DNA of 64,000 bases from Candidatus Omnitrophota bacterium (GCA_041649175.1 JBAZNR010000002.1:47149-111148); one strand, 5' to 3'. Shown: positions 26,044 through 61,907, counted from the stretch's first letter. A program made the numbers and translations. The notes: generated by a model from the letters alone, not told the origin.

Positions 26044-26047
26044 AAAT

Positions 26048-35199: not shown

Positions 35200-35217
35200 T
35201 TGAACAACAAGTAAAAA

Positions 35218-35256
35218 GGCCCGATGACCGCTAAGGTCATCGGGCCTTTTTATTTT
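35218..35256 (+). terminator. rho-independent terminator of cspA
   Basis: GGCCCGATGACC-GCTAA-GGTCATCGGGCC followed by TTTTTATTTT. Confidence 0.85.
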
Positions 35257-35432: not shown

Positions 35433-36695
35433 ATGAATATGACCCAACTCTTAGCCCTTAGTCTTAGCATTTTCCTCGCTTCAGCTTCTTTCTCTTTCGC
35501 TCTCCAGGCAGCACCGGATCAGGAAAAATATCAAAAAGACATGGTCAATGTGTTCGATGGTAATTTTTCTGCCGCACAAGAAGTGCGCGATGACATTCGG
35601 GCTATTGAAGAAGCCATTGACGAAAGCCCGGGAGACCCGTCTCTTTATTATGAGCTTGCACTCATTTATGGCAGTGTAAAGAACTATTCCAAGACCATAG
35701 AATTTCTTAAAAAGACTATTGCCTATTCGTCGGACGATCAAAAGCTGCTTATTGCTCTTCACTGCATTTTGGCCAAGCAGTATATGTGGATAAAGGATTT
35801 TAATAAAGCCAGAGAAGCGATCGATAAGATCCGAGGGCATGACCCTGAGAATTTATTTGTTTACACAGTGGATACGGAATATTTTATTCTTAAGAAAGAC
35901 TGGGTTAAAGCAGCCAAGAAGCTAAAAGAAGCAGAAGGGGCCTGTGCGGCCGAAAATATCGATTGCTATTGGGATGCCTGGAACTTTTGCTTGAAGAAAG
36001 TAAAGAGCAAAAAAGATATTATCGAACTTTTTCGGCTCGGGGTTGAAGAAAATCCAAACTCTGCCAAGGCGCATAGGGCGTATGCGGCGGCTTTAAGGGG
36101 GAGCTTTGAGACGATCCAGGAGGATTTCCCGATCGTTATGCAGGAACTTCAAAAAGCGTACGAACTCGATCCCAAATATGTTCCGACGATGTTAATGATC
36201 GCCAATACGCATATGTTCCTGGGGATCTCTTCAAAAGATAAAAGCCATTTTAAGGATGCTCTTTCATGGTTCAGTAAAGCGCGAAGCGCGGATCCTAAAA
36301 ATTTGCGTTCACTTTATGCCTTAGGCTATTTTTATTATTTGACGGGCGATAATCTAAAAGCGATCAAAAAACTGGAATATTTGCTCAAGAAAAATCCCGA
36401 CGATGAAGACGTGACAGAGATCTTGGCGTACTCTTATAATAACCAAGCATTTCACGCACATTATGAAACTGGAAAAAACTTATCCCGGGGCCTTAGGCTT
36501 ATTGAGAAGGCGATCAAGTTGCTTCCTTATAGCGCGGTGATCCTCAGCACGAAAGCCGAGCTTCTCTATAAAATGGGAAAGCTTTCGGAAGCTAAGAAGG
36601 TGATCAATCAAGCTGCGGTTTTTGCGCCGAGCCATCCCTCTGTCAAAAAGGACATTTTTGTGATTGAAGAAGCGCTTAAAAGTCGCGGACAATAA
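35433..36695 (+). CDS. secreted tetratricopeptide (TPR) repeat protein
   Basis: 420 aa. Signal peptide. Multiple TPR-like 34-aa helical repeats with A/Y/L positions. Confidence 0.7.
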   Translation: MNMTQLLALSLSIFLASASFSFALQAAPDQEKYQKDMVNVFDGNFSAAQEVRDDIRAIEEAIDESPGDPSLYYELALIYGSVKNYSKTIEFLKKTIAYSSDDQKLLIALHCILAKQYMWIKDFNKAREAIDKIRGHDPENLFVYTVDTEYFILKKDWVKAAKKLKEAEGACAAENIDCYWDAWNFCLKKVKSKKDIIELFRLGVEENPNSAKAHRAYAAALRGSFETIQEDFPIVMQELQKAYELDPKYVPTMLMIANTHMFLGISSKDKSHFKDALSWFSKARSADPKNLRSLYALGYFYYLTGDNLKAIKKLEYLLKKNPDDEDVTEILAYSYNNQAFHAHYETGKNLSRGLRLIEKAIKLLPYSAVILSTKAELLYKMGKLSEAKKVINQAAVFAPSHPSVKKDIFVIEEALKSRGQ

Positions 36696-36738: not shown

Positions 36739-37080
36739 ATGACGAAACGATCGATTCCTTTTATCTTTGTTGTCGCTTTACTTTTTACCGGTGCAATTTC
36801 TTTTGCGCAGCAAGAGGTGACATTGCCGCCGGCCAGTAGCGTCAATCAGCCGGTTCCCGAAGGGATGGAAGCGGTGCAGATCGGCGCCAGCGCGGTGTTG
36901 ATCATCCCCAAAGGAGCTAAAACACGTAAAGTCGGCGCGCAAATCATCGTGGAAGGCACGAAAGAATACATGGCGCGCAAAACTTTCGAGATCGAAGAGC
37001 GCCTTTTAGAGATCGAAAAACGTCAATCAGATATGGCCAAAGATATCGAATCTCTTAAAAACGCCAGAGAAATCAAATGA
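36739..37080 (+). CDS. small secreted hypothetical protein with C-terminal coiled coil
   Basis: Internal ATG 36739 gives MTKRSIPFIFVVALLFTGAISFA, a signal peptide. The 3' end overlaps the hemE start (ATGA). Confidence 0.4.
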   Translation: MTKRSIPFIFVVALLFTGAISFAQQEVTLPPASSVNQPVPEGMEAVQIGASAVLIIPKGAKTRKVGAQIIVEGTKEYMARKTFEIEERLLEIEKRQSDMAKDIESLKNAREIK

Positions 37081-38087
37081 AACCCTTATTTCTTCAAGCT
37101 TTTGAAGGGACGAATAAAACTGTCCCTGTTTGGTTTATGCGCCAGGCCGGGCGCTTCCTGCCGCAATATCGTGCTTTAAAGGAAAAATATTCTTTAAACG
37201 AGATGTTCCAAACGCCTGAATTGGCATCGGAGATCACGGTTCAACCTATTGATGCCTTGGGCGTGGATGCGGCTATTTTATTCGCGGATATCTTAACGCT
37301 TCCTTCGGCAATGGGTTTTAACATCAAATTTTCTAATACTGATGGGCCGGTCATCGATAATTCCTTAGGAAATGCTGCCAATTTCAAAAATATTCACGAT
37401 CTTGACGATCTGTCTTTCGTTGAAAAGACGATCAAACTTGTTAACGCGCGTTTGCCGGACAATATCCCGCTTATTGGTTTTGCGGGCAGTCCTTTTACGG
37501 TTTTAAGCTATTTGGTCGAAGGCGGCTCCTCGCTTAGCTTCGCCAAGCTTTTTAAGTTCTTGGCCGAAGAACCGCAGCAATTCCATCGTCTTATGGAAAT
37601 CTTGACGAAAAATACGATCGATTATCTTAATTTGCAGAAGAAAGCTGGTATTAAAGCATTTCAGATCTTTGATACCTGGGGCGGTATTTTGCGGCCTAGC
37701 GACTACGCCCATTTTGTTTTGCCTTACGTAAAAGAGATCTTTGAAAAAGTTGATTTGCCGTCGATCTATTACGTGAAAAATTGCAGCCATTTGCTGGCGC
37801 TGATGGAGCAAACGGACGCAGATTTCCTATCGGTCTGCCATACGGTGGTTTTAGGGCATAATTCTATTTTGGAGAAAACCCAAAAAGGCGTTCAGGGAAA
37901 TTTGTTTAACGGGATTTTTTATGCGCCGAGCAAAAATCTGGAAAAAGAAGTCCGGGATGTTTTGCTCGGCGCACAACATTATAAAAAATATATTTTTAAT
38001 TTAAGTCACGGCATTTTACCTGACACGGATGTTTCAAAAGTAAAGTCAGTGGTGGAGCTGGTACACAAGTTCAAATGGCAACCGTAA
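37077..38087 (+). CDS. hemE: uroporphyrinogen decarboxylase
   Basis: 336 aa. N-terminal PVWFMRQAGR signature. Confidence 0.92.
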   Translation: MKPLFLQAFEGTNKTVPVWFMRQAGRFLPQYRALKEKYSLNEMFQTPELASEITVQPIDALGVDAAILFADILTLPSAMGFNIKFSNTDGPVIDNSLGNAANFKNIHDLDDLSFVEKTIKLVNARLPDNIPLIGFAGSPFTVLSYLVEGGSSLSFAKLFKFLAEEPQQFHRLMEILTKNTIDYLNLQKKAGIKAFQIFDTWGGILRPSDYAHFVLPYVKEIFEKVDLPSIYYVKNCSHLLALMEQTDADFLSVCHTVVLGHNSILEKTQKGVQGNLFNGIFYAPSKNLEKEVRDVLLGAQHYKKYIFNLSHGILPDTDVSKVKSVVELVHKFKWQP

Positions 38088-38113
38088 AGATCTTCCGGTC
38101 ATAATTTTATCTC

Positions 38114-39475
38114 ATGGCAAAAATCTGTATCATTGGCGGCGGAATAAGCGGTTTGGCAGTTTTGCATTATTTAAAACAGAAATATGCCTCGCGCGCTGAT
38201 ATTGATATTCAATTGTTGGAAAAGAATGATACGCTTGGCGGAACCATTAAAAGCATTCGCCACGATGACGTTTTATTCGAGACCGGCCCCAACGGTTTTC
38301 TTTCCTCGAAGCCCCGCACCTTAGAATTTATCAAAGAATTAGGATTATCGGACGAACTCGTCAGCGCGGATAAACAATCCGAAGAGCGCTTTTTGCTTTC
38401 CAAAGGAAAACTCCACGCGCTTCCTAAAAATCCGGCCACTTTTTTGAAATTCAAACTTCTATCTTCGTTAGAAAAACTTCGTATTCCCTTGGAATATTTT
38501 ATCGCCAAAGGAGCTGATCCGGTTGAAAGCGTTTATGATTTCGGAAAAAGGCGTTTGGGAAAACGTTTTGCGCAAGTTTTTCTGGACCCGATGTGCGCCG
38601 GGATCTTCGGCGGGGAAGCGCAAAATCTAAATTTGAAACTCGCCTTTCCGCGTATTTATGAGATCGAACAAACCTACGGTTCTTTGATCAAGGGGATGAT
38701 CGCTTTAAAAAAGAAAAAAAGCGAAAAGCATTACAATGTTGAGCCCAAAGGAACCTTAACTTCCTTTCGCCGCGGAATGTCGCAGCTCATTGAGGTTTTG
38801 AGCGCGCGCTATCAAAATTCCATTGTGACGGGTTGCGAAATCGATTTTATTAATAAGGTTGGCGGCAGTTTTGTTATTCGCGCAAAAAACCAGAATCTTT
38901 TAGCTGACGAAGTTTATATGTCCGTACCCGCCGCGGCCGCGGCGAAGATGGCCAATTCTTTAAGCCCGTCTTTGGCGGGCAGTTTGCGTTGTGTTTTTTA
39001 CGCGCCGATGACGGTTGCGGGGTTGGTGTACAGGCGTTCGGATTTTGAAATCCTGCCATTTGGTTTTGGTTATTTAACTTCTTCTTTGGAACGTCGCGAT
39101 ATTTTGGGGGTTTTATTCGATAGCAATATTTTCCCCAATCGCGCCGGAAGTGAATATTTTTCCTGCCGGGTGATGATGGGCGGAGCGAGAAATCCGTCGA
39201 TGATCAGTGAGTCAAAAGAAAAGTTGCTCAACCTGGCCAAAGAGGAAATAAAGAATATTCTTAAAGTCCGCCAAGAACCGGTCAAAGAATTTTTTGCAAG
39301 TTTTCCCAGCGCCATTCCTCAATACGATAAAGCGTATGTTCAGGTCAGGGAAAACATCATCAATGAATCGTTAAAAATAAGCCGCTTACATCTTGCCGCT
39401 AATTATTTGGGCGGGATTTCTCTTAATGACTGCGTTGAAAATGCGTATCAAACGGTTCAACAAAGTAAGTTTTAA
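38114..39475 (+). CDS. hemY: protoporphyrinogen/coproporphyrinogen oxidase (HemY-type FAD amine-oxidase fold)
   Basis: 453 aa. FAD dinucleotide motif ICIIGGGISGLAV plus C-terminal HemY-type motifs. Confidence 0.82.
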   Translation: MAKICIIGGGISGLAVLHYLKQKYASRADIDIQLLEKNDTLGGTIKSIRHDDVLFETGPNGFLSSKPRTLEFIKELGLSDELVSADKQSEERFLLSKGKLHALPKNPATFLKFKLLSSLEKLRIPLEYFIAKGADPVESVYDFGKRRLGKRFAQVFLDPMCAGIFGGEAQNLNLKLAFPRIYEIEQTYGSLIKGMIALKKKKSEKHYNVEPKGTLTSFRRGMSQLIEVLSARYQNSIVTGCEIDFINKVGGSFVIRAKNQNLLADEVYMSVPAAAAAKMANSLSPSLAGSLRCVFYAPMTVAGLVYRRSDFEILPFGFGYLTSSLERRDILGVLFDSNIFPNRAGSEYFSCRVMMGGARNPSMISESKEKLLNLAKEEIKNILKVRQEPVKEFFASFPSAIPQYDKAYVQVRENIINESLKISRLHLAANYLGGISLNDCVENAYQTVQQSKF

Positions 39476-39538
39476 ATAATAAATTAATCTTTGTTTCTTT
39501 TTAAGTTTTTGCTATGATGGCTCGAATTTAAAAACACC

Positions 39539-40234
39539 ATGAAACCACATTTCCTTATTATTCTATTCTTTGTCTTGATCGCAGCCTGTGAACCGGCCGC
39601 GCCTAAAGAACGCCGCTATACGGAAATAACTGTTTCTCCGGAAATTTCCATGGCGCAGGATCCGCACGCGTTTTTAAACGAAATGCCTGAAGATCCGCAC
39701 GCGTTTCTCAAAAACATGCCGCAGGATCAAGATCCGCACGCTTTTTTAAATCAAATGCCGATGGGCGATCTGCCGGTAGCTGATCCTAAGCAAGATGATC
39801 TAAGCTGGGATGTTCCCGACGGCTGGAGTGAAAAACCGGCCAGCGGTATGCGGCTTGCGACATTGGTTGATGCGGATACAAAAGATCCTATTGATTGCAG
39901 CATTGTTTCCTTAGGCGGACAGGCCGGCGGCCTTCAGGCTAATGTCCAGCGTTGGATGAAACAGATCAATGTCTCGGTGTCTTCACCGGAAGAATTAGAT
40001 AAATTTTTAGCGAAAAGTGAAACGGTAAAAGGCGCAGAATTATCCGCGAGCGTCATTGACCTTACTTTATTGCAATCCTCGGGTGATGCGGCTTTACCCT
40101 CAATGATCGCCGCGATCGTTACCACAAACGAAAAAACTTATTTTGTCAAAATGGCCGGATCAAAATCGGCTGTCGAAAAAAACAAAAGCGCATTTACAGC
40201 GCTTCTTAAATCCCTCAAGCTCAAAGCAAAGTAG
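39539..40234 (+). CDS. lipoprotein with three tandem DPHAFL(N/K)xMP repeats
   Basis: 231 aa. Lipobox LIAAC. Repeats DPHAFLNEMPE / DPHAFLKNMPQDQ / DPHAFLNQMPM are encoded by 33-39 nt tandem DNA repeats at 39659-39763. Confidence 0.55.
   Translation: MKPHFLIILFFVLIAACEPAAPKERRYTEITVSPEISMAQDPHAFLNEMPEDPHAFLKNMPQDQDPHAFLNQMPMGDLPVADPKQDDLSWDVPDGWSEKPASGMRLATLVDADTKDPIDCSIVSLGGQAGGLQANVQRWMKQINVSVSSPEELDKFLAKSETVKGAELSASVIDLTLLQSSGDAALPSMIAAIVTTNEKTYFVKMAGSKSAVEKNKSAFTALLKSLKLKAK
39659..39763 (+). repeat. intragenic tandem DNA repeat (3 units, period 33-39 nt, GATCCGCACGC(G/T)TTT...ATGCC)
   Basis: Units start at 39659, 39692 and 39731. They encode the DPHAFL peptide repeats. Confidence 0.7.
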
Positions 40235-40239
40235 TTTCT

Positions 40240-41364
40240 ATGTTGGACAAAATTAAATCACTGCGCATCATGCGAACATTAAGTTCTGTTAAGTGGGCGG
40301 TTTTCTGCCTGCTGGCGCTTTTTATTTTAGTTTTTGCCGGGACAGTTTATCAGGCCGAATACGGGCTTTACTTAGCCCAAGAACGGTTTTTTAATTCCTT
40401 TGTGTTTTTGTTGTTCGGATTTTTGCCGTTTCCGGGCGCTCAGTTGGTTTTATGGATCTTGTTCGTTAACCTAACCGCCGCGGCCATTACGCGTTTTCAA
40501 TACAAATGGTCCAAAATCGGATTAACGGTCATTCATGGCGGTATATTATTGTTTTTTATTTCGGCGTTCGTCACATTTTATTATTCTTTTGAATCAAATC
40601 TGACTTTAAATGAAGGTGAGTCGTCCAACGTTTCGGCGGCCTATCACAATTGGGAAATATCGGCCTGGGAAAAAGCCACAGGAAAGAAAAGCGTTATCGC
40701 TTATGATGCCGATCATTTAAATTCAAACGCGGTTTTGCGCTTTGATGATCTTGGTTTTTCGCTGACGGTAAAAAATTATTATCCGAATAGCGCCGCTTTT
40801 AGCGAATCGGATAAAAAAGATGCTGTGCGAAATAGTTCGGGGATCAGTATTTTAGAAGAGCGTCCCGTTGATCATGATCCGGTAAAAAATATTCCAAGCG
40901 GCAAGTTTGTTTTAACACAGGCGAATTCGCCAAGCCAAGATATTATTTTGTTTGGCGGCGACATGTTACCGACGCAGATCACCGCTGGCGCAAAGCACTA
41001 TGAACTTGTGCTTCGCCGGAAGCGATTTGAATTGCCGTTCGCTGTCAAGTTAGTCGACTTTCGCATGACCAAACATCCCAATACCGAAATGGCAAAAAGC
41101 TTTGAAAGCACGGTTGAGGTTCAAACGCCTTTAGCGTCGCGGGAGGTCATAATTTCTATGAATAATCCTTTGAGGCATAATGATTTTACTTTTTATCAGG
41201 CGTCGTATTCTATCGGGCGTAACGGCGAAGAAACATCAACCTTAGCCGTTGTCAAAAATAAAGGGCGTGTTTTGCCGTATATCGCAACGATCGTTACATT
41301 TTTAGGATTAGTTTTTCATTTTTCTGTTTCTTTGTATCGCATGCGCGCAAAGGATCCGGCATGA
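40240..41364 (+). CDS. ccsB: cytochrome c biogenesis protein CcsB/ResB (system II), short form
   Basis: 374 aa. N-terminal TM helices, periplasmic domain, C-terminal TM and FYQASYS-like ResB motif. Translationally coupled to ccsA (ATGA overlap). Confidence 0.78.
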   Translation: MLDKIKSLRIMRTLSSVKWAVFCLLALFILVFAGTVYQAEYGLYLAQERFFNSFVFLLFGFLPFPGAQLVLWILFVNLTAAAITRFQYKWSKIGLTVIHGGILLFFISAFVTFYYSFESNLTLNEGESSNVSAAYHNWEISAWEKATGKKSVIAYDADHLNSNAVLRFDDLGFSLTVKNYYPNSAAFSESDKKDAVRNSSGISILEERPVDHDPVKNIPSGKFVLTQANSPSQDIILFGGDMLPTQITAGAKHYELVLRRKRFELPFAVKLVDFRMTKHPNTEMAKSFESTVEVQTPLASREVIISMNNPLRHNDFTFYQASYSIGRNGEETSTLAVVKNKGRVLPYIATIVTFLGLVFHFSVSLYRMRAKDPA

Positions 41365-43238
41365 AAAAAAATATTATCGCGTGTGTTTTGACCGTGGTGG
41401 CTGTTCTTAGCTTCTCTGTGTTTGCCAGCGCCGAAGAAGGGAAATTTCCGCTTCAGCAGTTCGGACGCATGGCAATTTTAGAAAGCGGACGGATCAAGCC
41501 GATCGACACATACGCGCGCCATGTTTTATTGCAATTCTCCGGAAAGACAACCTACGAGCGAAAACCTGCCTTAGCTTGGTTGGCGCGGGTTATCTTTACG
41601 CCGACACAAACGCGTGATGACAAAGTCTTCCTTATTAATAATGCCGAGATCGCACATGCTTTGGGTGTTACGGCGGAATCAAAACGCCGGTATAGTTTTG
41701 CGCAGTTGGAAAAAGGGTTTCATCAGCTTGAAATGTTGGCGGCTTCCGCTAACCAGATTGAACCAAAATCACGCAGTGTTGTTGAAAACGAGATCCTTCG
41801 CACTTTTGAAAATCTGGTGCTTTACTTAGGCCTGACGGACAGTTTCAGTTTTGCCGTACCTCACGTTGATTTTTCCATTTCCTCTGGTAATGTTGTGCGG
41901 ATGCTGCAACTTCCGGAAACACAAAAAGAATTTACTTTTCTTGAGATCGCGCTTCATTCGGATTTGATCCGTCCGGTGGCAGATAGTTTAACCGCAAAGA
42001 ATTCTTCTGATTGGACCGAGGATGAGCGGGAGATCTTCCGGATTTTGTCGAATATGTATCAATGGTCGCAGTATTTTCGTCATCTTCCGCTGATGGTTAT
42101 TCCGTCGGAAGGAAACCACGAACAAAATTGGCTAAGCCCCTGGGATGCGATGGCCCAAGAATTTCACAGCGAAAAAATCAAAAAAGAGATCATATTTTTA
42201 GCCGAGTTGACGCGTGGCTATCAGGACAAACAGCCGATCGTCTTTGATCTGGCGGCGAAGAAATTTTCTGACTCGGTGCGGCAGCGCACCAGTGATGTGC
42301 GTAGCATGCGTTATATTGACTTGGAATTATCATATAATCGCGCCGGATATTTTGTTTTTTCTCATATCTTTTATTGGTTATCGTTTTTGGCGTTTATTGC
42401 TTTTGCGGTTAATGGAAAGCTGAATTTACGCTTCGCGAGTTTCATGTTTTTGATCCTAGGATTTATTCCGCATACAGCGGGTTTGATTTTCCGTATCATT
42501 ATTCTGGGGCGTCCGCCGGTCACCAGCCTCTATGAAACCTTTGTTTTTGTTGCCTGGATGAGCGTTTTGCTCGGCATCATTATCGAGAAAGTGAATCGCA
42601 AGTGGCTCGGGAACATTGTCGGCAGTATTGCCGGTGTTTTGCTTTTGATCATTGCCGGAAAATTCAGCAGTGACGGGGACACCATGAAAATGTTAGTCGC
42701 TGTTTTAAATTCTAATTTTTGGTTAGGCATTCATGTTCCTACCATTACCATGGGCTATGCGGCGTGTTGTGTCGCCGGGATCATTGGGCACGCCTACATT
42801 ATTCAAGCGATCGCGCATCCGCAAGATACCGCACAGCTGCGTGCGACCTACAAAACACTTCTCATGTCTTTAGGGCTTGGTTTGACATTGTCTTTTTTTG
42901 GAACGATGTTAGGCGGCATTTGGGCGGATCAATCCTGGGGAAGGTTTTGGGGCTGGGACCCCAAAGAGAATGGCGCGCTTTTGATCGTTATCTGGTGCAT
43001 TATTATCTTTCACGCGCGGATTGCGAATATGTTAGACGAGTTAGGCGTGGCGGCGGCCAGCATTTTTGGCATTGTTATTGTGGCGTGGGCCTGGTTTGGC
43101 GTCAATTTATTAAGCGTTGGCCTTCATTCTTATGGGTTTACATCCGGTGTTGCGGCAGGGCTTATTGGCTATGTGGCGGCACAAGTCGTATTTTTGATCG
43201 CAGGTGTTTTCTGGGCAAGAAAAAGGTTAAAAATTTAG
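41361..43238 (+). CDS. ccsA: cytochrome c biogenesis protein CcsA/ResC (system II heme exporter/lyase) with a roughly 330-aa N-terminal periplasmic extension
   Basis: 625 aa. WWD domain WGRFWGWDPKENGALL. Conserved His residues in TM helices. Signal peptide plus a large soluble N-domain. Confidence 0.85.
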   Translation: MKKNIIACVLTVVAVLSFSVFASAEEGKFPLQQFGRMAILESGRIKPIDTYARHVLLQFSGKTTYERKPALAWLARVIFTPTQTRDDKVFLINNAEIAHALGVTAESKRRYSFAQLEKGFHQLEMLAASANQIEPKSRSVVENEILRTFENLVLYLGLTDSFSFAVPHVDFSISSGNVVRMLQLPETQKEFTFLEIALHSDLIRPVADSLTAKNSSDWTEDEREIFRILSNMYQWSQYFRHLPLMVIPSEGNHEQNWLSPWDAMAQEFHSEKIKKEIIFLAELTRGYQDKQPIVFDLAAKKFSDSVRQRTSDVRSMRYIDLELSYNRAGYFVFSHIFYWLSFLAFIAFAVNGKLNLRFASFMFLILGFIPHTAGLIFRIIILGRPPVTSLYETFVFVAWMSVLLGIIIEKVNRKWLGNIVGSIAGVLLLIIAGKFSSDGDTMKMLVAVLNSNFWLGIHVPTITMGYAACCVAGIIGHAYIIQAIAHPQDTAQLRATYKTLLMSLGLGLTLSFFGTMLGGIWADQSWGRFWGWDPKENGALLIVIWCIIIFHARIANMLDELGVAAASIFGIVIVAWAWFGVNLLSVGLHSYGFTSGVAAGLIGYVAAQVVFLIAGVFWARKRLKI

Positions 43239-43291
43239 GAATAAGTGATATAATTGGGACATTTATTAGCACTTTTTAAGTCAATTCGACT

Positions 43292-44356
43292 ATGCAGATC
43301 GTTACACTCGGAATTAACCACAAAACAGCCCCTATTGAAGTCCGCGAGAAATTTTGCTGCTCACCACAACAGCAAGAATTGCTTTTAAGCGAACTGCGCA
43401 ATAATCCTTCTGTCGCCGAAGCCTTCATCCTATCCACTTGTAATCGTCTCGAAATTTACGCGTACACCGTTAGCGCCCAGGATGCTCAGACGATCCTTAA
43501 AACGCTTTTCTCGGTCAAAAAGATCAAGTTTTCAGATATTTTGCAAAAACACTTTTACATTTATGCGGATGAAGTGGCGGTGGATCATTTCTTGCGTGTC
43601 GCGGCAGGCTTGGATTCTTTAGTGTTGGGTGAAAAGCAGATCTTAGGCCAGGTTAAGGAAGGTGTTAAGCTTGCGGCATCAAAAGGGATGCTGGGAAAAT
43701 ATTTTAACATTTTAACCAATATTGCCGTGCGCACCGGGAAAAAAGCCCAAAGTGAAACGCAGATAAGCTATGGCGGCTCGTCCATTAGTTGGGCGGCGGT
43801 TGCTTTAGGTGAAAAGATCTTAGGAAGTTTTTCCGAAAAGTCTGTCCTGATGATCGGCGCTGGAAAAATGGGCGAATTGACTGCGCAGCAAATTAAAAAT
43901 AAAGGCGCTAAAAATTTGTTTTTTATGAACCGTACGCAATCTTGTGCTAGCGCCTTGGCATCTCAGTGTCGCGGGCAAGAGGCGGCATTTTGCGATATGG
44001 AAAGAATTCTTTCAGAAATAGACATTTGTTTTTGTTCGGTGGGCGCGCCGCATTTTATTTTGGAAAAAAGCACGGTTTTTAAAGCGATGCAAAAACGAGA
44101 GAGTCGTCCGCTTGTTTTTATCGATATTTCCGTTCCGCGCAACATCGACCCGGCTTGCGGCGAGGTGAGCGGTGTTGATCTTTATCATGTGGACGACCTT
44201 GAACGCGTCGTGGATGAAAATATTCAACGTCGGACAGCGGCCGTTGATTTGGTTGAGAAAATTATCCGGCAAAAACATGCCGAGTTTTACCGCAAGATCG
44301 AGAAAATAACATCGCGGCAGTACAGCGATTATTACGAGCCCGCACGTGTTAAGTAA
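43292..44356 (+). CDS. hemA: glutamyl-tRNA reductase
   Basis: 354 aa. MQIVTLGINHKTAPIEVREKF N-terminus, catalytic Cys in LSTCNRLE, NADPH-binding GAGKMG. Confidence 0.9.
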   Translation: MQIVTLGINHKTAPIEVREKFCCSPQQQELLLSELRNNPSVAEAFILSTCNRLEIYAYTVSAQDAQTILKTLFSVKKIKFSDILQKHFYIYADEVAVDHFLRVAAGLDSLVLGEKQILGQVKEGVKLAASKGMLGKYFNILTNIAVRTGKKAQSETQISYGGSSISWAAVALGEKILGSFSEKSVLMIGAGKMGELTAQQIKNKGAKNLFFMNRTQSCASALASQCRGQEAAFCDMERILSEIDICFCSVGAPHFILEKSTVFKAMQKRESRPLVFIDISVPRNIDPACGEVSGVDLYHVDDLERVVDENIQRRTAAVDLVEKIIRQKHAEFYRKIEKITSRQYSDYYEPARVK

Positions 44357-44368
44357 AAAAGTTCTTAA

Positions 44369-45001
44369 TTGATGATGGATTTCTTTCGGCGGCTGATATC
44401 CGCAATAAGCGCGTTTGTGCATTTTGTTATTCCTCCGCGCGAGTGGCGATTTGTTGTTATCGTTCTTTTGGGAATTTTTGCTGGATTGGGTTTTTATACA
44501 CTGCGGATCTCGAATGCGGTTTCTTATCTTTCAGATCAGCCCGAAACGTGCATGAATTGCCACGTGATGTCACCGGAATATGCGACGTGGGCGCATGGCA
44601 GCCACCGCCAGCGGGCGGTTTGTACCGATTGCCATGTTCCGCATGATAACGTGATCCATAAATATTTTTTTAAAGCAAAAGACGGATTGCGGCACGCGAC
44701 GATCTTTACAATGCGTACTGAGCCGCAGGTGATCGTGATGAAGCCGGACGGAGTTACGGCGGTGCAGGAAAATTGCATTCGTTGCCACGCAAATTTACTT
44801 GATGGTGTTTCGGCTCGTGATGTGACCGGAAAGAATTATTTACACGGAGAGGGTAAGCTATGCTGGGATTGTCATCGGGAAACGCCTCATGGAACGGTTC
44901 GTAGCTTGTCATCTGTGCCGTATGCGCGTGTTCCTCAATTACCCAGCGTTATTCCGTCGTGGTTAGATGAATTCTTGCGAAAATCTCAAAATATAAAATA
45001 A
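44369..45001 (+). CDS. nrfH: cytochrome c nitrite reductase small subunit NrfH (NapC/NirT-family tetraheme quinol dehydrogenase)
   Basis: 210 aa. N-terminal TM anchor. Four CxxCH motifs: CMNCH, CTDCH, CIRCH, CWDCH. Confidence 0.9.
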   Translation: MMMDFFRRLISAISAFVHFVIPPREWRFVVIVLLGIFAGLGFYTLRISNAVSYLSDQPETCMNCHVMSPEYATWAHGSHRQRAVCTDCHVPHDNVIHKYFFKAKDGLRHATIFTMRTEPQVIVMKPDGVTAVQENCIRCHANLLDGVSARDVTGKNYLHGEGKLCWDCHRETPHGTVRSLSSVPYARVPQLPSVIPSWLDEFLRKSQNIK

Positions 45002-45010
45002 AGGGCGGCT

Positions 45011-46483
45011 ATGAAAAAAATCAATGATTTGATCAGCGAAAAACCTTGGATCGGATGGGTTATTTTCTTGGTGACGATTGCGGTTGTTTTCGCGCTCGGG
45101 CTTTTGGCATCCTCCATTATGGAGCGGCGCACCGAAGCTAAGCTCGCGTTTCAAGTTGCAAAGCCGATTCCCGAATGGGAACCGCGTAATGAAATTTGGG
45201 GTGAAAATTTTCCTCGTCAATTTGAGCGTTATCAAAGTACGAAGGAAAGCGATTTTGCCAGCCGTCACGGCGGAAGCGTTGAAATCGACAGTTTAGAACG
45301 CGATCCACGTATGATCGTTTTATGGGCGGGATATGCGTTCGCGCGCGACTATAATCAAGGCCGAGGACATTATAATGCCATTACAGATATTCGAAAAACT
45401 TTAAGAACCGGTGTCGCTCAGCCCGGAACATGCTGGACATGTAAAAGCACCGATGTTCCGCGCCTCATGAAAGATTTGGGTGTGGCACAATTTTACAAAA
45501 AGAAATGGTCGGATCTTGGCTCCGAAGTTGTGAATCCTATCGGCTGTCAGGATTGTCATGATCCCAAAACGATGAATTTGCGCATCACACGCCCGGCCTT
45601 GGCGGAAGCGCTTGAGCGGCAAGGAAAAGATGTAAAAAAAGCAACGCATCAAGAAATGCGTTCGCTTGTTTGCGCGCAGTGTCATGTGGAATATTATTTT
45701 AAAGGTGATGAAAAATATTTAACCTTTCCTTGGGATCAGGGACTGACCGCTGAAAATATTGAAAAATATTACGACCAGTACGATCATGTGGATTGGGTTC
45801 ATGCGCTTAGCAAAACGCCAATGCTAAAAGCTCAACATCCGGATTACGAATTATGGGCGTTAGGCGTGCATGCTCAGCGCGGTGTTGCGTGCGCCGATTG
45901 TCATATGCCGTATCGCAGTGAAGGCGGCGTGAAATTCACTGATCACAAAATTCAAAGCCCTCTTAATAATATCGCGAATTCTTGCCAAGTTTGTCATCGG
46001 GAAAGCGAAGAAACGCTTCGTCAGAATGTTTTTGAACGCCAGGATAAGGTTTTAGAATTGCGGCTCCAGGCGGAAGATGCGTTGGTGAACGCGCATATCG
46101 AGGCTAAAGCGGCTTGGGAAAGCGGCGCGACCGAAGAAGAGATGAAGCCGATCTTAAAGCTTATTCGCCAGGCGCAGTGGCGTTGGGATTATGCGACCGC
46201 AAGCCATGGCGCGAGTTTTCACGCGCCTTTGGAGGTTTCGCGGATCTTAGGCGGAGCGACGCAAAAAGCGGGTGAGGCGCGTGTCTTATTGGCGCGTGTC
46301 TTAGCGGCGCACGGAATTCAAACGCCGATTGCAATGCCGGATATTTCTACAAAAGAAAAGGCGCAATCGTTTATTGGCCTGGACATGAGTAAGCTTAAAG
46401 CTGAAAAAGAAGAATTTATGAAAAATGTTTTGCCCGAGTGGGACCAAAAAGCCAAAGAACGGCAAGAAAAGATGACGCCATAA
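45011..46483 (+). CDS. nrfA: ammonia-forming cytochrome c nitrite reductase, pentaheme catalytic subunit NrfA
   Basis: 490 aa. Active-site CxxCK (CWTCK) plus four CxxCH motifs (CQDCH, CAQCH, CADCH, CQVCH). Signal-anchor N-terminus. Confidence 0.92.
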   Translation: MKKINDLISEKPWIGWVIFLVTIAVVFALGLLASSIMERRTEAKLAFQVAKPIPEWEPRNEIWGENFPRQFERYQSTKESDFASRHGGSVEIDSLERDPRMIVLWAGYAFARDYNQGRGHYNAITDIRKTLRTGVAQPGTCWTCKSTDVPRLMKDLGVAQFYKKKWSDLGSEVVNPIGCQDCHDPKTMNLRITRPALAEALERQGKDVKKATHQEMRSLVCAQCHVEYYFKGDEKYLTFPWDQGLTAENIEKYYDQYDHVDWVHALSKTPMLKAQHPDYELWALGVHAQRGVACADCHMPYRSEGGVKFTDHKIQSPLNNIANSCQVCHRESEETLRQNVFERQDKVLELRLQAEDALVNAHIEAKAAWESGATEEEMKPILKLIRQAQWRWDYATASHGASFHAPLEVSRILGGATQKAGEARVLLARVLAAHGIQTPIAMPDISTKEKAQSFIGLDMSKLKAEKEEFMKNVLPEWDQKAKERQEKMTP

Positions 46484-47814
46484 TGTTGCCAGAAATTATT
46501 TACCAATATCCGTATTTTTTTATTGGCGTAATTGCTATTTTAGTCAATATTCCGATGGGTTATCTTCGGGAAGGCTGCGCAAAATTCTCGCTGGCGTGGT
46601 TTTTCTGGATCCATGCCTCTATTCCGATCCTTATCTATTTGCGTTGGACGCTTCACACGTCAAAGCTTTTTATCCCTGTTGCCATTATGTTTGCCATCGT
46701 CGGGCAGATCGTCGGTAGCCGTTATCGGCGCAAAAAAATGCCGCAGGCCGAGCATGACGCTCTCGAGCAAATCTCTGATCTGCGTCTTATGAAAAATGCC
46801 GGTTGTTCGGCGGGGGATGCGGATATTCAAGTTGTCTTGCTTAACATGGGCGGGCCGCAGGAAAATAAAGATGTTCCGGATTTCTTAAAAAGGCTTTTTT
46901 TGGATGTGCGGCTTATCCGATTTCCGCTGGCGTTTTTATTACAGCCTTTGTTCGCAAATTTACTTGTATTCTTTAGAGCCAAAGCCGCGCAACATCGTTA
47001 TCAGTTGATCGGCGGCGGAAGCCCGATTCTAAGATCAACCATGCAGCAGGCGGCGGCGCTGCAGGCTGAATTGAAGAAACGCGGGCGAAATTTGAATGTC
47101 ACGATCTGTTTTAACTATAGCTATCCGCTTCCATCCGATACAGTGGAAGAAATAAAGCTTTCAAATAAGAAATTTGTTTTACCGGTGAGTTTGTATCCGC
47201 ATTATTCCGAGGCAACGACCGGTTCCAGCGTTTATTTCCTACAAAAGGAAGCGGCACAGAAAATTCCGGATGTTCGGTTTTTAGATGCGGATTCTTATTA
47301 TTTAAACGATTCCTACATTCAGGCATTTGCCGATCGTATCCGTCAGCAAATAAAGCCGAATGAATCTTTAAGTGATTTTTATCTTTTGTTTTCGGCGCAC
47401 GGGTTACCGCTTTATTTTCTAAAGGAAGGCGATGTTTATCCTTTTCAAATCGCTCAAACGGTCGCTAAAGTTATAAATTCTTTAGGCCGGCAAGACGCGT
47501 GGAGCATTTCCTATCAAAGCGCGGTTGGGCCGCTTGTTTGGTTAAAGCCATCGACGGAAAGCATGATTTCCGCTTTGGCTAAGCGCGGTGTGAAGAAGCT
47601 TCTGGTTGTTCCTATTTCTTTTGTGACGGATCATATCGAAACTCTTTGCGAGATCGATATAGAATATCGAACAATGGCTAAAGAATTAGGGATCAAAGAT
47701 TTCCGGATGAGCAAGGCTTTAGAGTCGCATCCGGGATTTATATCCGCTTTAGCGGATAGTGCGGAATCGGCGTTACGTTATCAACAAAAACAACGCGAGT
47801 GTTCTCGCGTTTGA
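46483..47814 (+). CDS. hemH: ferrochelatase with a roughly 100-aa N-terminal polytopic membrane extension
   Basis: ATG at 46483 overlaps the nrfA stop (TAATG). N-terminus has 3 predicted TM helices, followed by the ferrochelatase signature VVLLNMGGPQ and a C-terminal HIETL region. Confidence 0.85.
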   Translation: MLPEIIYQYPYFFIGVIAILVNIPMGYLREGCAKFSLAWFFWIHASIPILIYLRWTLHTSKLFIPVAIMFAIVGQIVGSRYRRKKMPQAEHDALEQISDLRLMKNAGCSAGDADIQVVLLNMGGPQENKDVPDFLKRLFLDVRLIRFPLAFLLQPLFANLLVFFRAKAAQHRYQLIGGGSPILRSTMQQAAALQAELKKRGRNLNVTICFNYSYPLPSDTVEEIKLSNKKFVLPVSLYPHYSEATTGSSVYFLQKEAAQKIPDVRFLDADSYYLNDSYIQAFADRIRQQIKPNESLSDFYLLFSAHGLPLYFLKEGDVYPFQIAQTVAKVINSLGRQDAWSISYQSAVGPLVWLKPSTESMISALAKRGVKKLLVVPISFVTDHIETLCEIDIEYRTMAKELGIKDFRMSKALESHPGFISALADSAESALRYQQKQRECSRV

Positions 47815-47826
47815 AATAAAGGAGCT

Positions 47827-48147
47827 GTGATGAAGCCAATCAATGTCGCGTTTTTAATTTACGGGATCCTCATGTTTGTGGGCGGATTTATCGGTTTCGC
47901 CAAAGCCGGAAGCAAAATGTCTTTGATCATGGGCATTGTTTCCGGGCTTATTATTATTCTCGGCGTTTTAATTTCCTTGAACAATCCGCAAACCGGATAC
48001 CTTGTTTTAACAGTGACAACAACGTTGTTGTCGGCTGTTTTTATAAGCCGTTTGATCAAAACACAAAGTTTTATGCCGTCGGGAATGCTCTTGATCTTTA
48101 GCCTCGCGGCCTTAGCAGTTTGCGTTGTTCAATTAATAAAAAAATAG
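47827..48147 (+). CDS. TMEM14-family small membrane protein (4 TM)
   Basis: 106 aa. VGGFIGFAKAGSKMSLIMG matches the TMEM14 signature GGxxGYxKxGSxxSLxxG. RBS AAGGAG. Directly after hemH. Confidence 0.5.
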   Translation: MMKPINVAFLIYGILMFVGGFIGFAKAGSKMSLIMGIVSGLIIILGVLISLNNPQTGYLVLTVTTTLLSAVFISRLIKTQSFMPSGMLLIFSLAALAVCVVQLIKK

Positions 48148-48365
48148 TGACTCCTAAGATTGATAAAAGTAATTTTCAGCATGTTTCCATCGGCCTTAAT
48201 GTCGCCACCGGAATGTTCGTTTTTTCCTATTTGGGATTTTTAGCCGATAAAAAATGGGGCGGGCAAGCCTGGACATTGGTAGGGATTCTCTTAGGATTGG
48301 TGTATAGCGCTTATGAGATCTGGAAACTTATTCGTCAGCTGAACGATCAGGATAAAAAAACGTAA
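48120..48365 (+). CDS. atpI: AtpI/AtpZ-like small membrane protein preceding the F-ATPase genes (PF09527-like)
   Basis: 81 aa (or from GTG 48147). Two TM helices. ...GLNVATGMFVFSYLGFLADKKWG... resembles the ATPase_gene1 family. Immediately upstream of atpB. Confidence 0.45.
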   Translation: MRCSINKKIVTPKIDKSNFQHVSIGLNVATGMFVFSYLGFLADKKWGGQAWTLVGILLGLVYSAYEIWKLIRQLNDQDKKT

Positions 48366-49132
48366 TGGCAAATCCCGGATTTAATTTAGAACAGTACATT
48401 ATGCATCATGTGACGAATGCGCACCAGTGGCGTTTGCCGTTTTTACCGCCTTTGGAATTGCCATCGTTTTTAAGCCTCCATGCCTTAATGCTGTTTTTTT
48501 GCGCGGCATTTTTGATCGTTCTTTTTGTGTTTTGTTTTAACAAAAAAGACCGTGTTCCTCACGGTATGACAAACCTTTTGGAAGCGTTCGTTGTTTTTAT
48601 CCGTGATGATATTGCCGTTAACTGCTTAGGTGAAAAAGACGGACGGAAAATGACACCGCTTTTTTGCACGTTTTTCTTCTTTATCTTGGGTTTGAATTTG
48701 ATGGGGCTTATTCCGCTGTTTTCTACTGCAACCGCGAATGTTAATGTAACGGCCGCGCTGGCGCTTGTTACCCTAAGCTTTATGATATTTGGCGCTATCT
48801 ACAAAAATGGATTCATGGGGTTTGTTAAGGCGCTTGTTCCATCAGGAGTTCCTGCTCCCATTTTGATCATTTTGGTTCCCATTGAGGTTTTAGGGCTTTT
48901 TATTAAAACGTTCGCCTTAACGATCCGTTTATTCGCCAATATGCTAGCAGGGCATATTGTGATTTTTGCGCTTTTAGGTTTGGTTGTTCTGTTGGGCTTT
49001 GCGGCGCTTCCGGCAGTTGTTCTGGCCCTTTTTATTTATGTTGTTGAGATATTAGTTTGCTTTTTGCAGGCGTACATTTTTACGCTTTTATCGGCGATGT
49101 TCATCGGTCAAATGTATCATCCGGCGCATTAA
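48365..49132 (+). CDS. atpB: F0F1 ATP synthase subunit a
   Basis: 255 aa. Conserved LFANMLAGH arginine-helix region. Confidence 0.92.
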   Translation: MANPGFNLEQYIMHHVTNAHQWRLPFLPPLELPSFLSLHALMLFFCAAFLIVLFVFCFNKKDRVPHGMTNLLEAFVVFIRDDIAVNCLGEKDGRKMTPLFCTFFFFILGLNLMGLIPLFSTATANVNVTAALALVTLSFMIFGAIYKNGFMGFVKALVPSGVPAPILIILVPIEVLGLFIKTFALTIRLFANMLAGHIVIFALLGLVVLLGFAALPAVVLALFIYVVEILVCFLQAYIFTLLSAMFIGQMYHPAH

Positions 49133-49144
49133 GATAAATTTAGA

Positions 49145-49172
49145 GAATTACTTTACTAATTTTCGAGGTTCA
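49145..49172 (+). promoter_or_regulatory. possible internal promoter (TTTACT-16bp-TATAAT) ahead of atpE
   Basis: -10 TATAAT at 49167-49172. Weak -35 TTTACT at 49145-49150. Located in the 105-nt atpB-atpE gap. Confidence 0.3.
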
Positions 49173-49237
49173 GTATAATACGGGTATTCAAAAAGACGAT
49201 TTTTAAGCAATATAACGATAAACGAAAGGACTTAAAT

Positions 49238-49453
49238 ATGACTCCAGCAGTATTTGCCGCCTTAGGCGCAGGTTTAGTGACCATTGGCGTTGGATTCGGG
49301 ATCGGAAAGCTCGCTGCCGCTGCCGTAGAGGGCATTGCCCGTCAACCGGAAGCGACCAATAAGATCCAAACAGCCATGTTGATCGCGGCTGCTTTGATCG
49401 AAGGGGTTGCTTTGTTTTGCGCGGTTATTTGCTTTTTAGCCCTTAACAAATAA
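49238..49453 (+). CDS. atpE: F0F1 ATP synthase subunit c
   Basis: 71 aa hairpin. GIARQPEA loop. Conserved carboxylate (E) in helix 2. Confidence 0.92.
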   Translation: MTPAVFAALGAGLVTIGVGFGIGKLAAAAVEGIARQPEATNKIQTAMLIAAALIEGVALFCAVICFLALNK

Positions 49454-49470
49454 TTAAACCAGGGAAAATC

Positions 49471-50004
49471 ATGACGCCTGATAGCGCATTAGAACATGTT
49501 TCTGGGGCCGCTGAGCACGCGCCGGGAGTTTTTACACCCGATGTGATGATGGCTGTTTTGACTTGGGTGACTTTCTTTGCGCTTTTGCTCGTCCTTTATA
49601 AGTTCGCCTGGAAACCTATTTTAAACGCTTTAGAATCGCGCGAAGAATTGATCCGCCGCTCAGTTGAAAACGCGGAAAAGGCGAACCGCCAACTGGCGGA
49701 TATCGAAAAATCACGCGATGAGATCATCGCGCAGGCGCACGAAAAAGCCAAAGATGTTGTGGATCAAGCACGTAAAGCGGCTATTGAAGCGGCTGGCGTG
49801 ATCCAGCAGAAAACCAGAGACGACGCGCATATCATTTTAGAAAATGCCCGTCGTGAGATCAACGCCGAAAAAGAAAAAGCACAAGCCGAGCTCAAAAGCA
49901 CCAGTGCGCATATTGCCGTTCAGCTGGCCGAAAAACTTATTAACGAAAATTTAGATTCAGAAAAGAATCAGAAAATCGTTCGAGATTTTATTAAGGATAT
50001 TTAG
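49471..50004 (+). CDS. atpF: F0F1 ATP synthase subunit b
   Basis: 177 aa. Single N-terminal TM helix plus a long charged helix. Confidence 0.85.
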   Translation: MTPDSALEHVSGAAEHAPGVFTPDVMMAVLTWVTFFALLLVLYKFAWKPILNALESREELIRRSVENAEKANRQLADIEKSRDEIIAQAHEKAKDVVDQARKAAIEAAGVIQQKTRDDAHIILENARREINAEKEKAQAELKSTSAHIAVQLAEKLINENLDSEKNQKIVRDFIKDI

Positions 50005-50007
50005 CCT

Positions 50008-50544
50008 GTGAAAAAGCTTCCCGTAAGATCTTACACTCAAATGCTTCTTGAGCTGTCCAAAGAGCAAAATAGTCTTGAGACAGTCGCTGGGGACATGGTT
50101 GCGCTAAAATCGCTTATTGGCGATTCAAAAGAGTTCGATGATTTTTTAAATAACCCTTCGATCTCGTCTTCGGTGCGTCAGGGGATGGTCGAGGAGCTGT
50201 TTAAGACTCGTGTTCATGCAACGACGTTTCAGTTCTTAAATTTTCTTTCTGAAAAAGGACGATTGCCCCTTCTTTTTGATATTTGCCTTTTATTTGAGGG
50301 AAAATATAAAGACATTAAAGGCATTGTCGACGTGACTATTTTCACCTCATTTGAGTCAAACACTGCGGAGATCAAAGACATTTGCCGTCAACTCAAAGAA
50401 AAACTGCATAAAGATATTGAGCCTAAAGTGGTGGTCGACCGTCACTTGTTAGGCGGGATCAAAATTAAGGTAAAAGATTTTGTTTACGATTTGAGCCTGC
50501 GCAACCAACTTGTTAAATTTCAAAAAGGAATTTTTACAGCCTAA
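50008..50544 (+). CDS. atpH: F0F1 ATP synthase subunit delta (OSCP)
   Basis: 178 aa. Position between b and alpha. OSCP-like helical N-domain. Confidence 0.82.
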
Positions 50545-50549
50545 AGCCT

Positions 50550-52063: not shown

Positions 52064-52064
<1 letters not shown>
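50550..52064 (+). CDS. atpA: F0F1 ATP synthase subunit alpha
   Basis: 504 aa. P-loop GDRKTGKT. Highly conserved alpha-subunit sequence. Confidence 0.97.
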
Positions 52065-54372
<2,308 letters not shown>

Positions 54373-54373
54373 T

Positions 54374-54673
54374 ATGAGCGCTTATCCATTCTCTTTTGTT
54401 ACGGTTCACGGAAAAATATTTGACGGAAAAGTAGATTCTGTTATCGCGCCCGGCGTTGAAGGCTATTTTGGTGTCTTAAGCCAGCACGCGCCGATGGTGG
54501 CGATGCTCACCAGGGGAGTCGTGTCTTTGCGTCAAGAAGGCGTAGAAAAGCATTTTGCTGTTAACCAGGGAATTTTAGAAGTTGACGGCAGCGGCCAAGT
54601 TGTTTTATTGGCGCAAGAAGGTGTTGCGGCGGATAGTATCAATCAGGCAAAAGAAAAAGCCGCCGCATTTTAA
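54374..54673 (+). CDS. atpC: F0F1 ATP synthase subunit epsilon (short form, beta-sandwich only)
   Basis: 99 aa. Position after beta. Epsilon-like N-terminal beta domain; the C-terminal helical hairpin is absent. Confidence 0.75.
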   Translation: MSAYPFSFVTVHGKIFDGKVDSVIAPGVEGYFGVLSQHAPMVAMLTRGVVSLRQEGVEKHFAVNQGILEVDGSGQVVLLAQEGVAADSINQAKEKAAAF

Positions 54674-56140: not shown

Positions 56141-56163
56141 TATGAGATTTTAAGGAGGCTTAA

Positions 56164-56964: not shown

Positions 56965-56984
56965 TTCGCCAGGAGCAAATATTT

Positions 56985-58100: not shown

Positions 58101-58102
58101 TT

Positions 58103-61902: not shown

Positions 61903-61907
61903 TATTC

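Follow-up and report, generated by a model that had tools for sequence, protein, structure and literature searches.

What does it mean when the genes that make haem lie among the genes that use it? The question is raised by a 64-kb stretch of a metagenome-assembled genome (MAG) of Candidatus Omnitrophota (the window, in whose coordinates all positions are given; its source contig measures 659,407 bp). Between positions 37077 and 48147, ten genes follow one another on the + strand: hemE, hemY, a lipoprotein gene, ccsB, ccsA, hemA, nrfH, nrfA, hemH and a TMEM14 homologue. An earlier note, made from the DNA alone, had named these ten and proposed that they form a contiguous cluster for haem supply, cytochrome c maturation and nitrite ammonification. 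Gene calling from a map of open reading frames (ORFs) combined with Pfam and NCBIfam scans, using curated family cut-offs where these were given, recovered all ten in that order, at those positions and on that strand. Genes for the first, the last and two middle steps of haem synthesis are packed together with a split CcsBA cytochrome c synthase, the NrfHA nitrite reductase and multihaem cytochromes. We consider it probable that this is a real, lineage-conserved array that places the machinery making protohaem beside the machinery using it. From it we infer co-transcription, physical channelling of haem, and roles for the lipoprotein, for a membrane domain of HemH and for the TMEM14 protein.

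The strongest support comes from gene order in relatives. Scanning one genome per species with CcsA yielded 80 loci, with Omnitrophota MAGs at 45-51% identity as the top matches, and synteny was read from tblastn of the window proteins against these loci, from Pfam scans and from twelve exact-protein look-ups. A metagenome scan with hemH gave 5 loci only, the useful one being L091 (ccsA-hemA-hemH). Together these reveal a backbone consisting of [hemN]-hemE-hemY, lipoprotein-ccsB-ccsA, variable genes, hemA, further variable genes, hemH, TMEM14, the atp operon and HEAT-Rieske-cytochrome b. This order persists across genera and recurs in about ten other Omnitrophota genomes that are otherwise rearranged, at 45-65% protein identity (it was seen in L001, L003, L007, L082-L084, L091, L095 and L096). 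The earlier note had suggested comparing synteny across the lineage, and the comparison bears it out for the haem-ccs gene order; because that order recurs in other genomes, the adjacency is more than chance. In loci from outside the Omnitrophota, haem genes were found near ccsA only twice (L049, L072). The haem-ccs linkage is thus an Omnitrophota trait, of which the window holds the most compact version. Our literature searches found no prior description of haem or cytochrome clusters in Omnitrophota.

The layout of the window itself is consistent with joint expression. Intergenic spacing across the array runs from -4 to 63 nucleotides (overlaps of 1-4 or gaps of 5-63), with stop/start overlaps of the forms ATGA, TAATG and TAGTG; from the small secreted protein just upstream of hemE through TMEM14, stop and start codons overlap at four junctions. 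A terminator hairpin following cspA (35209..35255, + strand; fold energy -35.8 kcal/mol, z = -9.1 versus shuffles) was the sole long-stem site in the terminator scans, and is likely the upstream boundary of the transcription unit or units holding the array. These scans detected no comparable + strand hairpin from 35.3 to 64 kb and no convincing intrinsic terminator in any intergenic gap of the array. Terminator-like counts lay near the shuffled expectation (36 versus 23.8 +/- 5.9; 27 versus 23.0 +/- 5.2), and since this holds for the promoter and terminator scans generally, we regard only the 35209-35255 hairpin as informative. An Rfam scan found no riboswitch or other RNA element inside the cluster.

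The adjacency could instead be a by-product of a compact, strand-biased genome, in which the genes form independent units with their own promoters and nothing couples haem supply, CcsBA and NrfHA. Several observations weigh on that side and against our own reading. Only three functionally assigned genes of the window lie off the + strand and the GC skew is positive throughout, so that the co-orientation of the array is weak evidence; that the genes are "all on one strand", as the earlier note had stressed, is true of the ten and carries little weight. Promoter-like sites occur inside the block, for example TTAAAA-16-TGnTATAAT at 43227-43254, ahead of hemA. Among the relatives, L001 and L096 have two opposite-strand ABC-transporter genes separating hemY from the lipoprotein gene, and moeA-mobA-moaD, in some cases accompanied by rtcB or a ZIP transporter, lies between ccsA and hemA in L001, L007, L082, L084 and L095. 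Toxin-antitoxin pairs are among the variable genes, and one locus (L096) has haem and atp genes without ccs. Because unrelated and opposite-strand genes split the block in this way, these relatives at least must make several transcripts, and the ancestral state was therefore several transcription units. In addition, nrfHA occupies the hemA/hemH interval in only 2 of the roughly nine genomes where that interval is readable (the window and L095). The set is also incomplete within the window: hemB, hemC, hemD and hemL were not found in its 64 kb. The usual description of System II of cytochrome c maturation includes, besides CcsA and CcsB, two proteins for thiol reduction, and none of the corresponding partners (CcdA/DsbD, ResA/CcsX) was seen among the window ORFs scanned. 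Against this, the linkage survives divergence to 45-65% protein identity and turnover of the neighbouring genes, stop/start overlaps occur at four junctions, the lipoprotein-ccsB-ccsA trio is kept across many phyla, and TMEM14 tracks the haem genes rather than the atp operon, with a fusion to hemH in one lineage. We therefore consider this alternative unlikely, and favour the conserved array.

The variable genes between ccsA and hemA have a character of their own. Molybdenum-cofactor genes in this slot are also listed for L096 and L099, and napA-napB lies just upstream of hemA in L081. The molybdenum-cofactor and nap genes point to a wider grouping of genes for respiratory cofactors and enzymes.

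How far does the nitrite reductase belong to this arrangement? The earlier note had claimed a penta-/tetrahaem nitrite reductase, and the sequences of the two proteins support this. The nrfH gene (44372..45001, +) encodes a membrane-anchored tetrahaem quinol dehydrogenase (TIGR03153, 161.7 bits, cut-off 134.2) with four CXXCH motifs and one N-terminal transmembrane helix at residues 24-47. After a gap of 9 nucleotides comes nrfA (45011..46483, +), for the pentahaem ammonia-forming nitrite reductase (NF008339, 665.6 bits, cut-off 595; PF02335, 607 bits). Its haem sites are CWTCK at residue 141 and CXXCH at 179, 221, 294 and 325, and its best solved relatives are the NrfA proteins of Shewanella (E = 1e-148) and E. 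coli (E = 1e-137). One relative, L095, repeats the order hemA-nrfH-nrfA-hemH-TMEM14-atp with an NrfA that is 73% identical, and nrfHA is absent from the hemA/hemH slot in L007, L082, L084, L086, L091 and L096. The note's picture of haem synthesis, cytochrome c maturation and nitrite reduction interleaved in one cluster is therefore divided: the haem-ccs order is kept in the lineage, and the nrfHA component is present in few of its genomes. We conclude that nrfHA is an accessory insert in a variable slot, and that the backbone of haem, ccs, atp and Rieske-cytochrome b genes is the conserved feature.

The cytochrome c synthase is encoded by two genes overlapping by 4 nucleotides, which adjoin each other in 76 of the loci from the CcsA scan. 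The first, ccsB (40240..41364, +), encodes a ResB-like protein of 374 residues (PF05140, 62 bits, cut-off 24.6, partial coverage) with hydrophobic segments at residues 12-41, 53-84, 92-115 and 343-366. The second, ccsA (41361..43238, +), encodes 625 residues with a Cytochrom_C_asm domain (PF01578, 85.4 bits, threshold 29.9) and the WWD motif WGWDPKE; its TIGR03144 score of 135.9 bits lies under the equivalog cut-off of 187.6. The sequence WGRFWGWDPKE aligns to WGRYWGWDPKE of PDB 25vk, and GIHV, FHAR and GLHSYG are present. CcsA also carries an N-terminal periplasmic domain of about 310 residues that matched nothing in Pfam or NCBIfam, even at E up to 1. Since this domain aligns to fused CcsBA, and the WWD domain and transmembrane core align to the solved CcsBA structures 25vk and 7s9y at E = 1e-31 to 1e-33, CcsB and CcsA appear, by sequence, to be a split form of CcsBA and nothing new in kind. 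The resemblance to CcsBA of Helicobacter hepaticus (PDB 7S9Y, 7S9Z) and to PDB 25vk thus covers the WWD domain and the transmembrane core. The solved proteins are fused, whereas here a 374-residue CcsB and a 625-residue CcsA, the latter below the equivalog cut-off, come with a conserved lipoprotein.

The proximity of this synthase to nrfHA has a precedent. In nrfHAIJ of Wolinella succinogenes, nrfH and nrfA are likewise clustered with a System II synthase of the CcsBA type, NrfI, and NrfA likewise has a CXXCK site (PMC12285233). It could thus be argued that ccsB-ccsA is a dedicated lyase of the NrfI type, acting on the CXXCK haem of NrfA, and that the cluster is an extended nrf operon. The CWTCK site of NrfA fits this idea, as does the location of ccsBA within 1.2 kb of nrfH, and in two loci from outside the Omnitrophota, both from Verrucomicrobiota (L053, L078), ccsA adjoins nrfA-nrfH. 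Furthermore, NrfI is the only System II lyase known to be specific for CXXCK, and how such sites are served outside Wolinella is an acknowledged gap for System II (PMC12285233). The window differs from Wolinella in having a split synthase, encoded 5' of nrfHA with hemA in between, and in its additional haem-synthesis and lipoprotein genes; the synthase is also kept in relatives that lack nrfHA. Against a dedicated lyase, lipoprotein-ccsB-ccsA occupies the same place without nrfHA there in L001, L003, L007, L082, L084 and L091, the same module is the widespread form in many phyla, and ccsBA must also serve the CXXCH cytochromes encoded downstream. A dedicated nrf lyase is thus very unlikely. 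As ccsBA is conserved where nrfHA is absent, the pair is probably a general synthase.

A second precedent concerns hemA. HemX is a CcsA-family membrane protein, so a gene of the Cytochrom_C_asm family also adjoins hemA in the hemAXCDBL operon of Bacillus and Staphylococcus. The order here is ccsA then hemA, and hemC, hemD, hemB and hemL are not in the cluster. In that operon, HemX is reported to control HemA abundance (PMC5801465). The CcsA of the window has a complete WWD motif, the conserved histidines and a CcsB partner, and we therefore take it to be a real synthase and not a HemX-like regulator. With nrf genes beside a System II lyase in one case and hemA beside a CcsA-family gene in the other, the cluster is a variant of known arrangements.

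The lipoprotein gene directly upstream of ccsB (39539..40234, +) is less familiar. Its product has a lipobox (LIAAC), three DPHAF repeats, visible in the DNA as a repeat at about 39657-39762, and a C-terminal domain that the structural model assigns to the PsbP fold. No Pfam or NCBIfam family matched it, even at E up to 1, and nine further diverse members of the family were equally unmatched in Pfam; for the PsbP family itself (PF01789) the best of these ten reached E = 0.17 only. An alignment of 35 close homologues shows the lipobox, a linker that varies and holds between one and four (E)DPHAF motifs, and a domain of 140 residues. Conservation is at least 90% at D52, H54, A55 and F56 of the linker, whereas W90, P93, W96, R105, N135, R138, W139 and Q142 of the domain are invariant. 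The AlphaFold2 model has a mean predicted local distance difference test score (pLDDT) of 84.5; averaged over blocks of ten residues, the score in the domain is 81-98. The top Foldseek matches of this domain were CyanoP/PsbP, Tsi3 and LpqN (E = 6e-5 to 1e-3; target-normalised TM-scores 0.43-0.63). The model thus predicts a PsbP-like alpha/beta sandwich, a fold shared with PsbP, CyanoP, LpqN and Tsi3, but its sequence leaves it outside the Pfam PsbP family.

This family is large and its association with ccsB is widespread. A profile search (E <= 1e-3) gathered 8,160 representative clusters at 50% identity. Of the 63 ccsA-centred loci that extended far enough, 49 had a homologue in the same orientation at most 700 bp 5' of ccsB, and the gene was often tandem-duplicated or fused as a double. 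It stands directly 5' of ccsB in Omnitrophota, Verrucomicrobiota, Kiritimatiellae, Elusimicrobia, Acidobacteria, Spirochaetota, Marinimicrobia and Myxococcota. Literature searches returned no published lipoprotein partner of CcsBA or System II, and no earlier description of the NVNRWR motif. We suggest that the lipoprotein probably helps CcsB/CcsA to attach haem. An analogy can be drawn with the System I chaperone CcmE (CcmI may be named likewise), which is also a membrane-tethered protein on the periplasmic side, with a flexible segment bearing a conserved histidine; CcmE has an oligonucleotide/oligosaccharide-binding (OB) fold, however, and the lipoprotein does not, and the histidine motif of the latter is restricted to a subfamily. 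We considered the linker histidine as a universal haem ligand and rejected it, as only the Omnitrophota-like subfamily has a near-invariant histidine in DPHAF/PPGHP. Among diverse members, roughly half have no histidine in the linker, its frequency there (1.4-2.5%) being that of the background, which counts against a role of this kind across the family. Any haem-ligand role would thus be subfamily-specific.

Which route of haem synthesis feeds this machinery? The array opens with hemE (37077..38087, +), for uroporphyrinogen decarboxylase (TIGR01464, 348 bits, cut-off 303), and hemY (38114..39475, +), for a flavin-dependent protoporphyrinogen oxidase (TIGR00562, 275 bits, cut-off 98) of a family that normally uses O2. 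The earlier note had placed hemN elsewhere in the window; a true hemN, for the oxygen-independent coproporphyrinogen oxidase, is indeed present at 16464..17840 on the + strand (TIGR00538, 551 bits, cut-off 325). Given this hemN and a ferrochelatase of the PpfC type, the hemY product is probably PgoX of the protoporphyrin-dependent pathway. As the catalytic domain of HemH is 36-38% identical to human FECH, versus 23-24% to CpfC of Bacillus and Listeria, the pathway encoded appears to be the protoporphyrin-dependent one. In the window hemN lies 19 kb upstream of the cluster, whereas hemN-hemE-hemY are contiguous in L001, L003 and L096. Since hemN is directly 5' of hemE in these relatives, it was evidently split from the haem cluster here, with about 19 kb, including a defence island, now in between. 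It follows succinate dehydrogenase/fumarate reductase genes (cytochrome b, flavoprotein and Fe-S subunit; the whole run spans 13087-17840).

The first committed step is represented by a short form of hemA (43292..44356, +), encoding glutamyl-tRNA reductase (TIGR01035, 365.5 bits, cut-off 209.55). Both the catalytic and the NADPH-binding domains are present, as GlutR_N and Shikimate_DH matches in Pfam. The TIGR01035 match spans profile positions 1-340 of 416, and Pfam gave no GlutR_dimer match for the C-terminal dimerisation domain. The same domain is lacking in every Omnitrophota relative seen, where the homologues are 346-361 residues long (including L081-L086).

The last step is catalysed by HemH, a protoporphyrin-type ferrochelatase of 443 residues (46483..47814, +; TIGR00109, 278 bits, cut-off 124.6). 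The ATG at 46483, which overlaps the nrfA stop codon as TAATG, is most likely its start. The catalytic domain has the SAHGLP and DHIET motifs, with H306, D383, H384 and E386 invariant, and is closest to the protoporphyrin ferrochelatases of human and yeast (TM-score 0.82). Ahead of it lies an extension of about 95-115 residues, of which residues 1-95 form a three-helix membrane domain. The extension measures at least 87 residues in 119 of the 120 best ferrochelatase homologues. N22, G26, R29, F35, W39, I43, S46, G74, Q75 and G78 are invariant in this domain and H44 is at least 90% conserved, which is more than a passive membrane anchor needs. The AlphaFold2 model scores well overall (pLDDT 90.3; predicted TM-score 0.84) and in the N-domain, where ten-residue block means are 83-98. 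No solved ferrochelatase covers the domain, and it had no Pfam or NCBIfam match, even at E up to 1. The idea that it might be a diverged TMEM14 was tried and discarded, as hhalign of 119 N-domains against a TMEM14 alignment gave a probability of 0.2%.

The last of the ten genes encodes a separate membrane protein of the TMEM14 family (47830..48147, +; PF03647 (UPF0136), 77.7 bits, cut-off 24.8). It has four hydrophobic helices, and its closest solved match is human TMEM14C (2LOS, E = 6.9e-7). In 11 of 12 distinct loci the TMEM14 gene adjoins hemH or hemA: it is 3' of hemH in 8 (in one as an in-frame fusion), 3' of hemA in 3 and elsewhere in one (L098). All of these loci are from Omnitrophota, and their shared ancestry inflates the 11/12 figure, which speaks against reading too much into it. 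According to the FAX1 paper (PMC4344464), members of the family also exist in other groups, such as Chlamydiae and Nostocales. The hemH::TMEM14 fusion (P0063) was found on two contigs that differ at 10 of 4,210 nucleotides; because the contigs are non-identical, the fusion is not a single-assembly artefact. In L098 the TMEM14 gene is not beside haem genes (4615-5191), and is followed by a small DUF2621 protein with a weak match to PCP_red (protochlorophyllide reductase). This neighbour may be another link to tetrapyrroles.

Since TMEM14 overlaps an atpZ/atpI-like gene by 1 nucleotide in the window, it might instead belong functionally to the ATP synthase operon, much as AtpI and AtpZ do, its adjacency to hemH being incidental. 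TMEM14 is indeed directly 5' of atpZ or atpB in the window, L001, L007, L082, L086/L087, L095, L096 and L097, and one TMEM14::AtpZ fusion is predicted (P0214). However, L084, L085 and L099 lack the atp operon at this place or have it displaced, and yet keep TMEM14 next to hemH or hemA. The fusion to hemH is present in two non-identical assemblies, whereas that to AtpZ comes from a nanopore contig (L097) with frameshift-split OSCP and gamma-subunit genes; we rejected it as a link to ATP synthase, since it is a probable artefact, and no gene fusion or truncation predicted from that contig should be relied on. Finally, the closest solved relative, TMEM14C, is a protein linked to haem metabolism. 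A primary role for TMEM14 in ATP synthase is thus improbable, and we prefer to associate it with the ferrochelatase.

Such an association would have a eukaryotic parallel. Eukaryotic TMEM14C has been reported in a complex with ferrochelatase, PPOX and ALAS (PMC7140478). The resemblance to this mitochondrial haem metabolon is that a FECH-like HemH has a TMEM14C-like neighbour, and that hemA and hemY, the latter homologous to PPOX, are close by. There are also clear differences: the metabolon is a complex, whereas the bacterial link consists of gene neighbourhood and fusion; the ferrochelatase here has a membrane domain of its own; and a bacterium needs no transport of porphyrinogen across a membrane. 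Literature searches found no prior description of a link between TMEM14 and ferrochelatase in bacteria. We put forward tentatively, and with rather less confidence than the array itself, the joint proposal that the lipoprotein is a third widespread component of System II, acting as a periplasmic chaperone of haem or apocytochrome, and that TMEM14 is an ancient membrane partner of ferrochelatase. If this is true, the eukaryotic association of FECH with TMEM14C has a bacterial counterpart, reinforced by the three-helix domain of HemH and by the fusion in one lineage.

These elements can be combined in a working model. HemA, HemE, HemY and HemH, with HemN encoded elsewhere in the window, would make haem by the protoporphyrin-dependent route. 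The ferrochelatase, held at the inner membrane by its three-helix domain and probably also by TMEM14, would release haem near CcsBA; we know of no described path for haem from ferrochelatase to the exporter. The split CcsB/CcsA would then export the haem and attach it to periplasmic apocytochromes, probably aided by the lipid-anchored PsbP-fold protein. The products would be NrfH (four haems) and NrfA (five), forming a quinol:nitrite oxidoreductase that makes ammonium, and in addition the eight-haem cytochrome encoded downstream. Co-expression could thereby match supply to demand, which amounts to nine haems for each NrfH plus NrfA and eight for each downstream cytochrome.

The extent of the array bears on what it is. 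The earlier note had described a contiguous supercluster within 11 kb. It is not a self-contained unit: the run continues past 48147 without a break through atpZ, atpBEFHAGDC, HEAT-Rieske-cytochrome b and the eight-haem cytochrome to COX1. Because it runs on through ATP synthase to an A-type oxidase, we regard it as part of a respiratory array. The ATP synthase section (48147..54673, +, from Pfam) consists of the atpZ/atpI-like gene, which overlaps atpB by 1 nucleotide, and then atpB, E, F, H, A, G, D and C of the F-type enzyme. It is followed (54686..63644, +, from Pfam and NCBIfam) by genes for a HEAT protein, a Rieske protein, cytochrome b, a cytochrome b C-terminal/ExtQ-like protein, a 979-residue cytochrome c, a CarboxypepD_reg protein and subunit I of an A-type haem-copper oxidase. 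The 979-residue cytochrome has eight CXXCH motifs and SoxX-like and FixO-like segments. Gene order in this section is the same in six relatives (L082, L084, L088, L094, L095, L096), and it may encode an unusual bc-type supercomplex.

These genes also bear on lifestyle, which the earlier note had given as anaerobic or microaerobic. The anaerobic inference is weakened by the A-type haem-copper oxidase, by a periplasmic Cu/Zn superoxide dismutase (10764-11327) and by the HemY-type oxidase, so that a strictly anaerobic life finds little favour and the microaerobic alternative, or a facultative one, is left standing. The same note had called a siroheme nitrite/sulfite reductase at 6561-8378 (- strand). 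This is correct at the level of the NIR_SIR domain; the best matches were to assimilatory sulfite reductase models, all of them below their cut-offs. Taken with the superoxide dismutase and the oxidase, this protein too speaks against strict anaerobiosis.

Upstream, the genes next to the array are peculiar to the window. The small secreted protein of 113 residues (36739..37080, +), whose stop codon overlaps the hemE start as ATGA, had no Pfam or NCBIfam match, even at E up to 1, and was not found near the array in relatives. A TPR-repeat protein (35433..36695, +; Pfam TPR families) has an N-terminal hydrophobic helix and a weak, sub-threshold TPR_CcmH_CycH match; no homologue was found near the array in relatives, so that it neighbours the array only in the window. 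The cspA gene (34999-35199) coincides with a match to the Rfam cspA thermoregulator (34855-35250; 70 bits, just under the gathering score of 78). Further upstream, the segment at 20881-27022 has a low GC content (0.37-0.38 versus about 0.45 elsewhere) and encodes a lipase-like protein, an N6/N4 DNA methylase, a ResIII helicase/nuclease and a protein with a Shedu SduA C-terminal domain. This segment resembles an inserted defence island combining restriction-modification and Shedu.

The main value of the array lies in three conserved, uncharacterised parts: the lipoprotein family, the membrane domain of HemH and the link to TMEM14. A conserved lipoprotein partner of CcsBA would be a concrete candidate for study in E. 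coli, in which CcsBA has already been reconstituted. Equally, a bacterial TMEM14 encoded next to a ferrochelatase, and in some cases fused with it, would offer a simpler system for working out what TMEM14C does biochemically in vertebrate haem synthesis. For the ecology of the Omnitrophota, the gene content of the array suggests that the lineage can respire nitrite to ammonium, and its A-type oxidase fits a microaerobic or facultative lifestyle better than a strictly anaerobic one.

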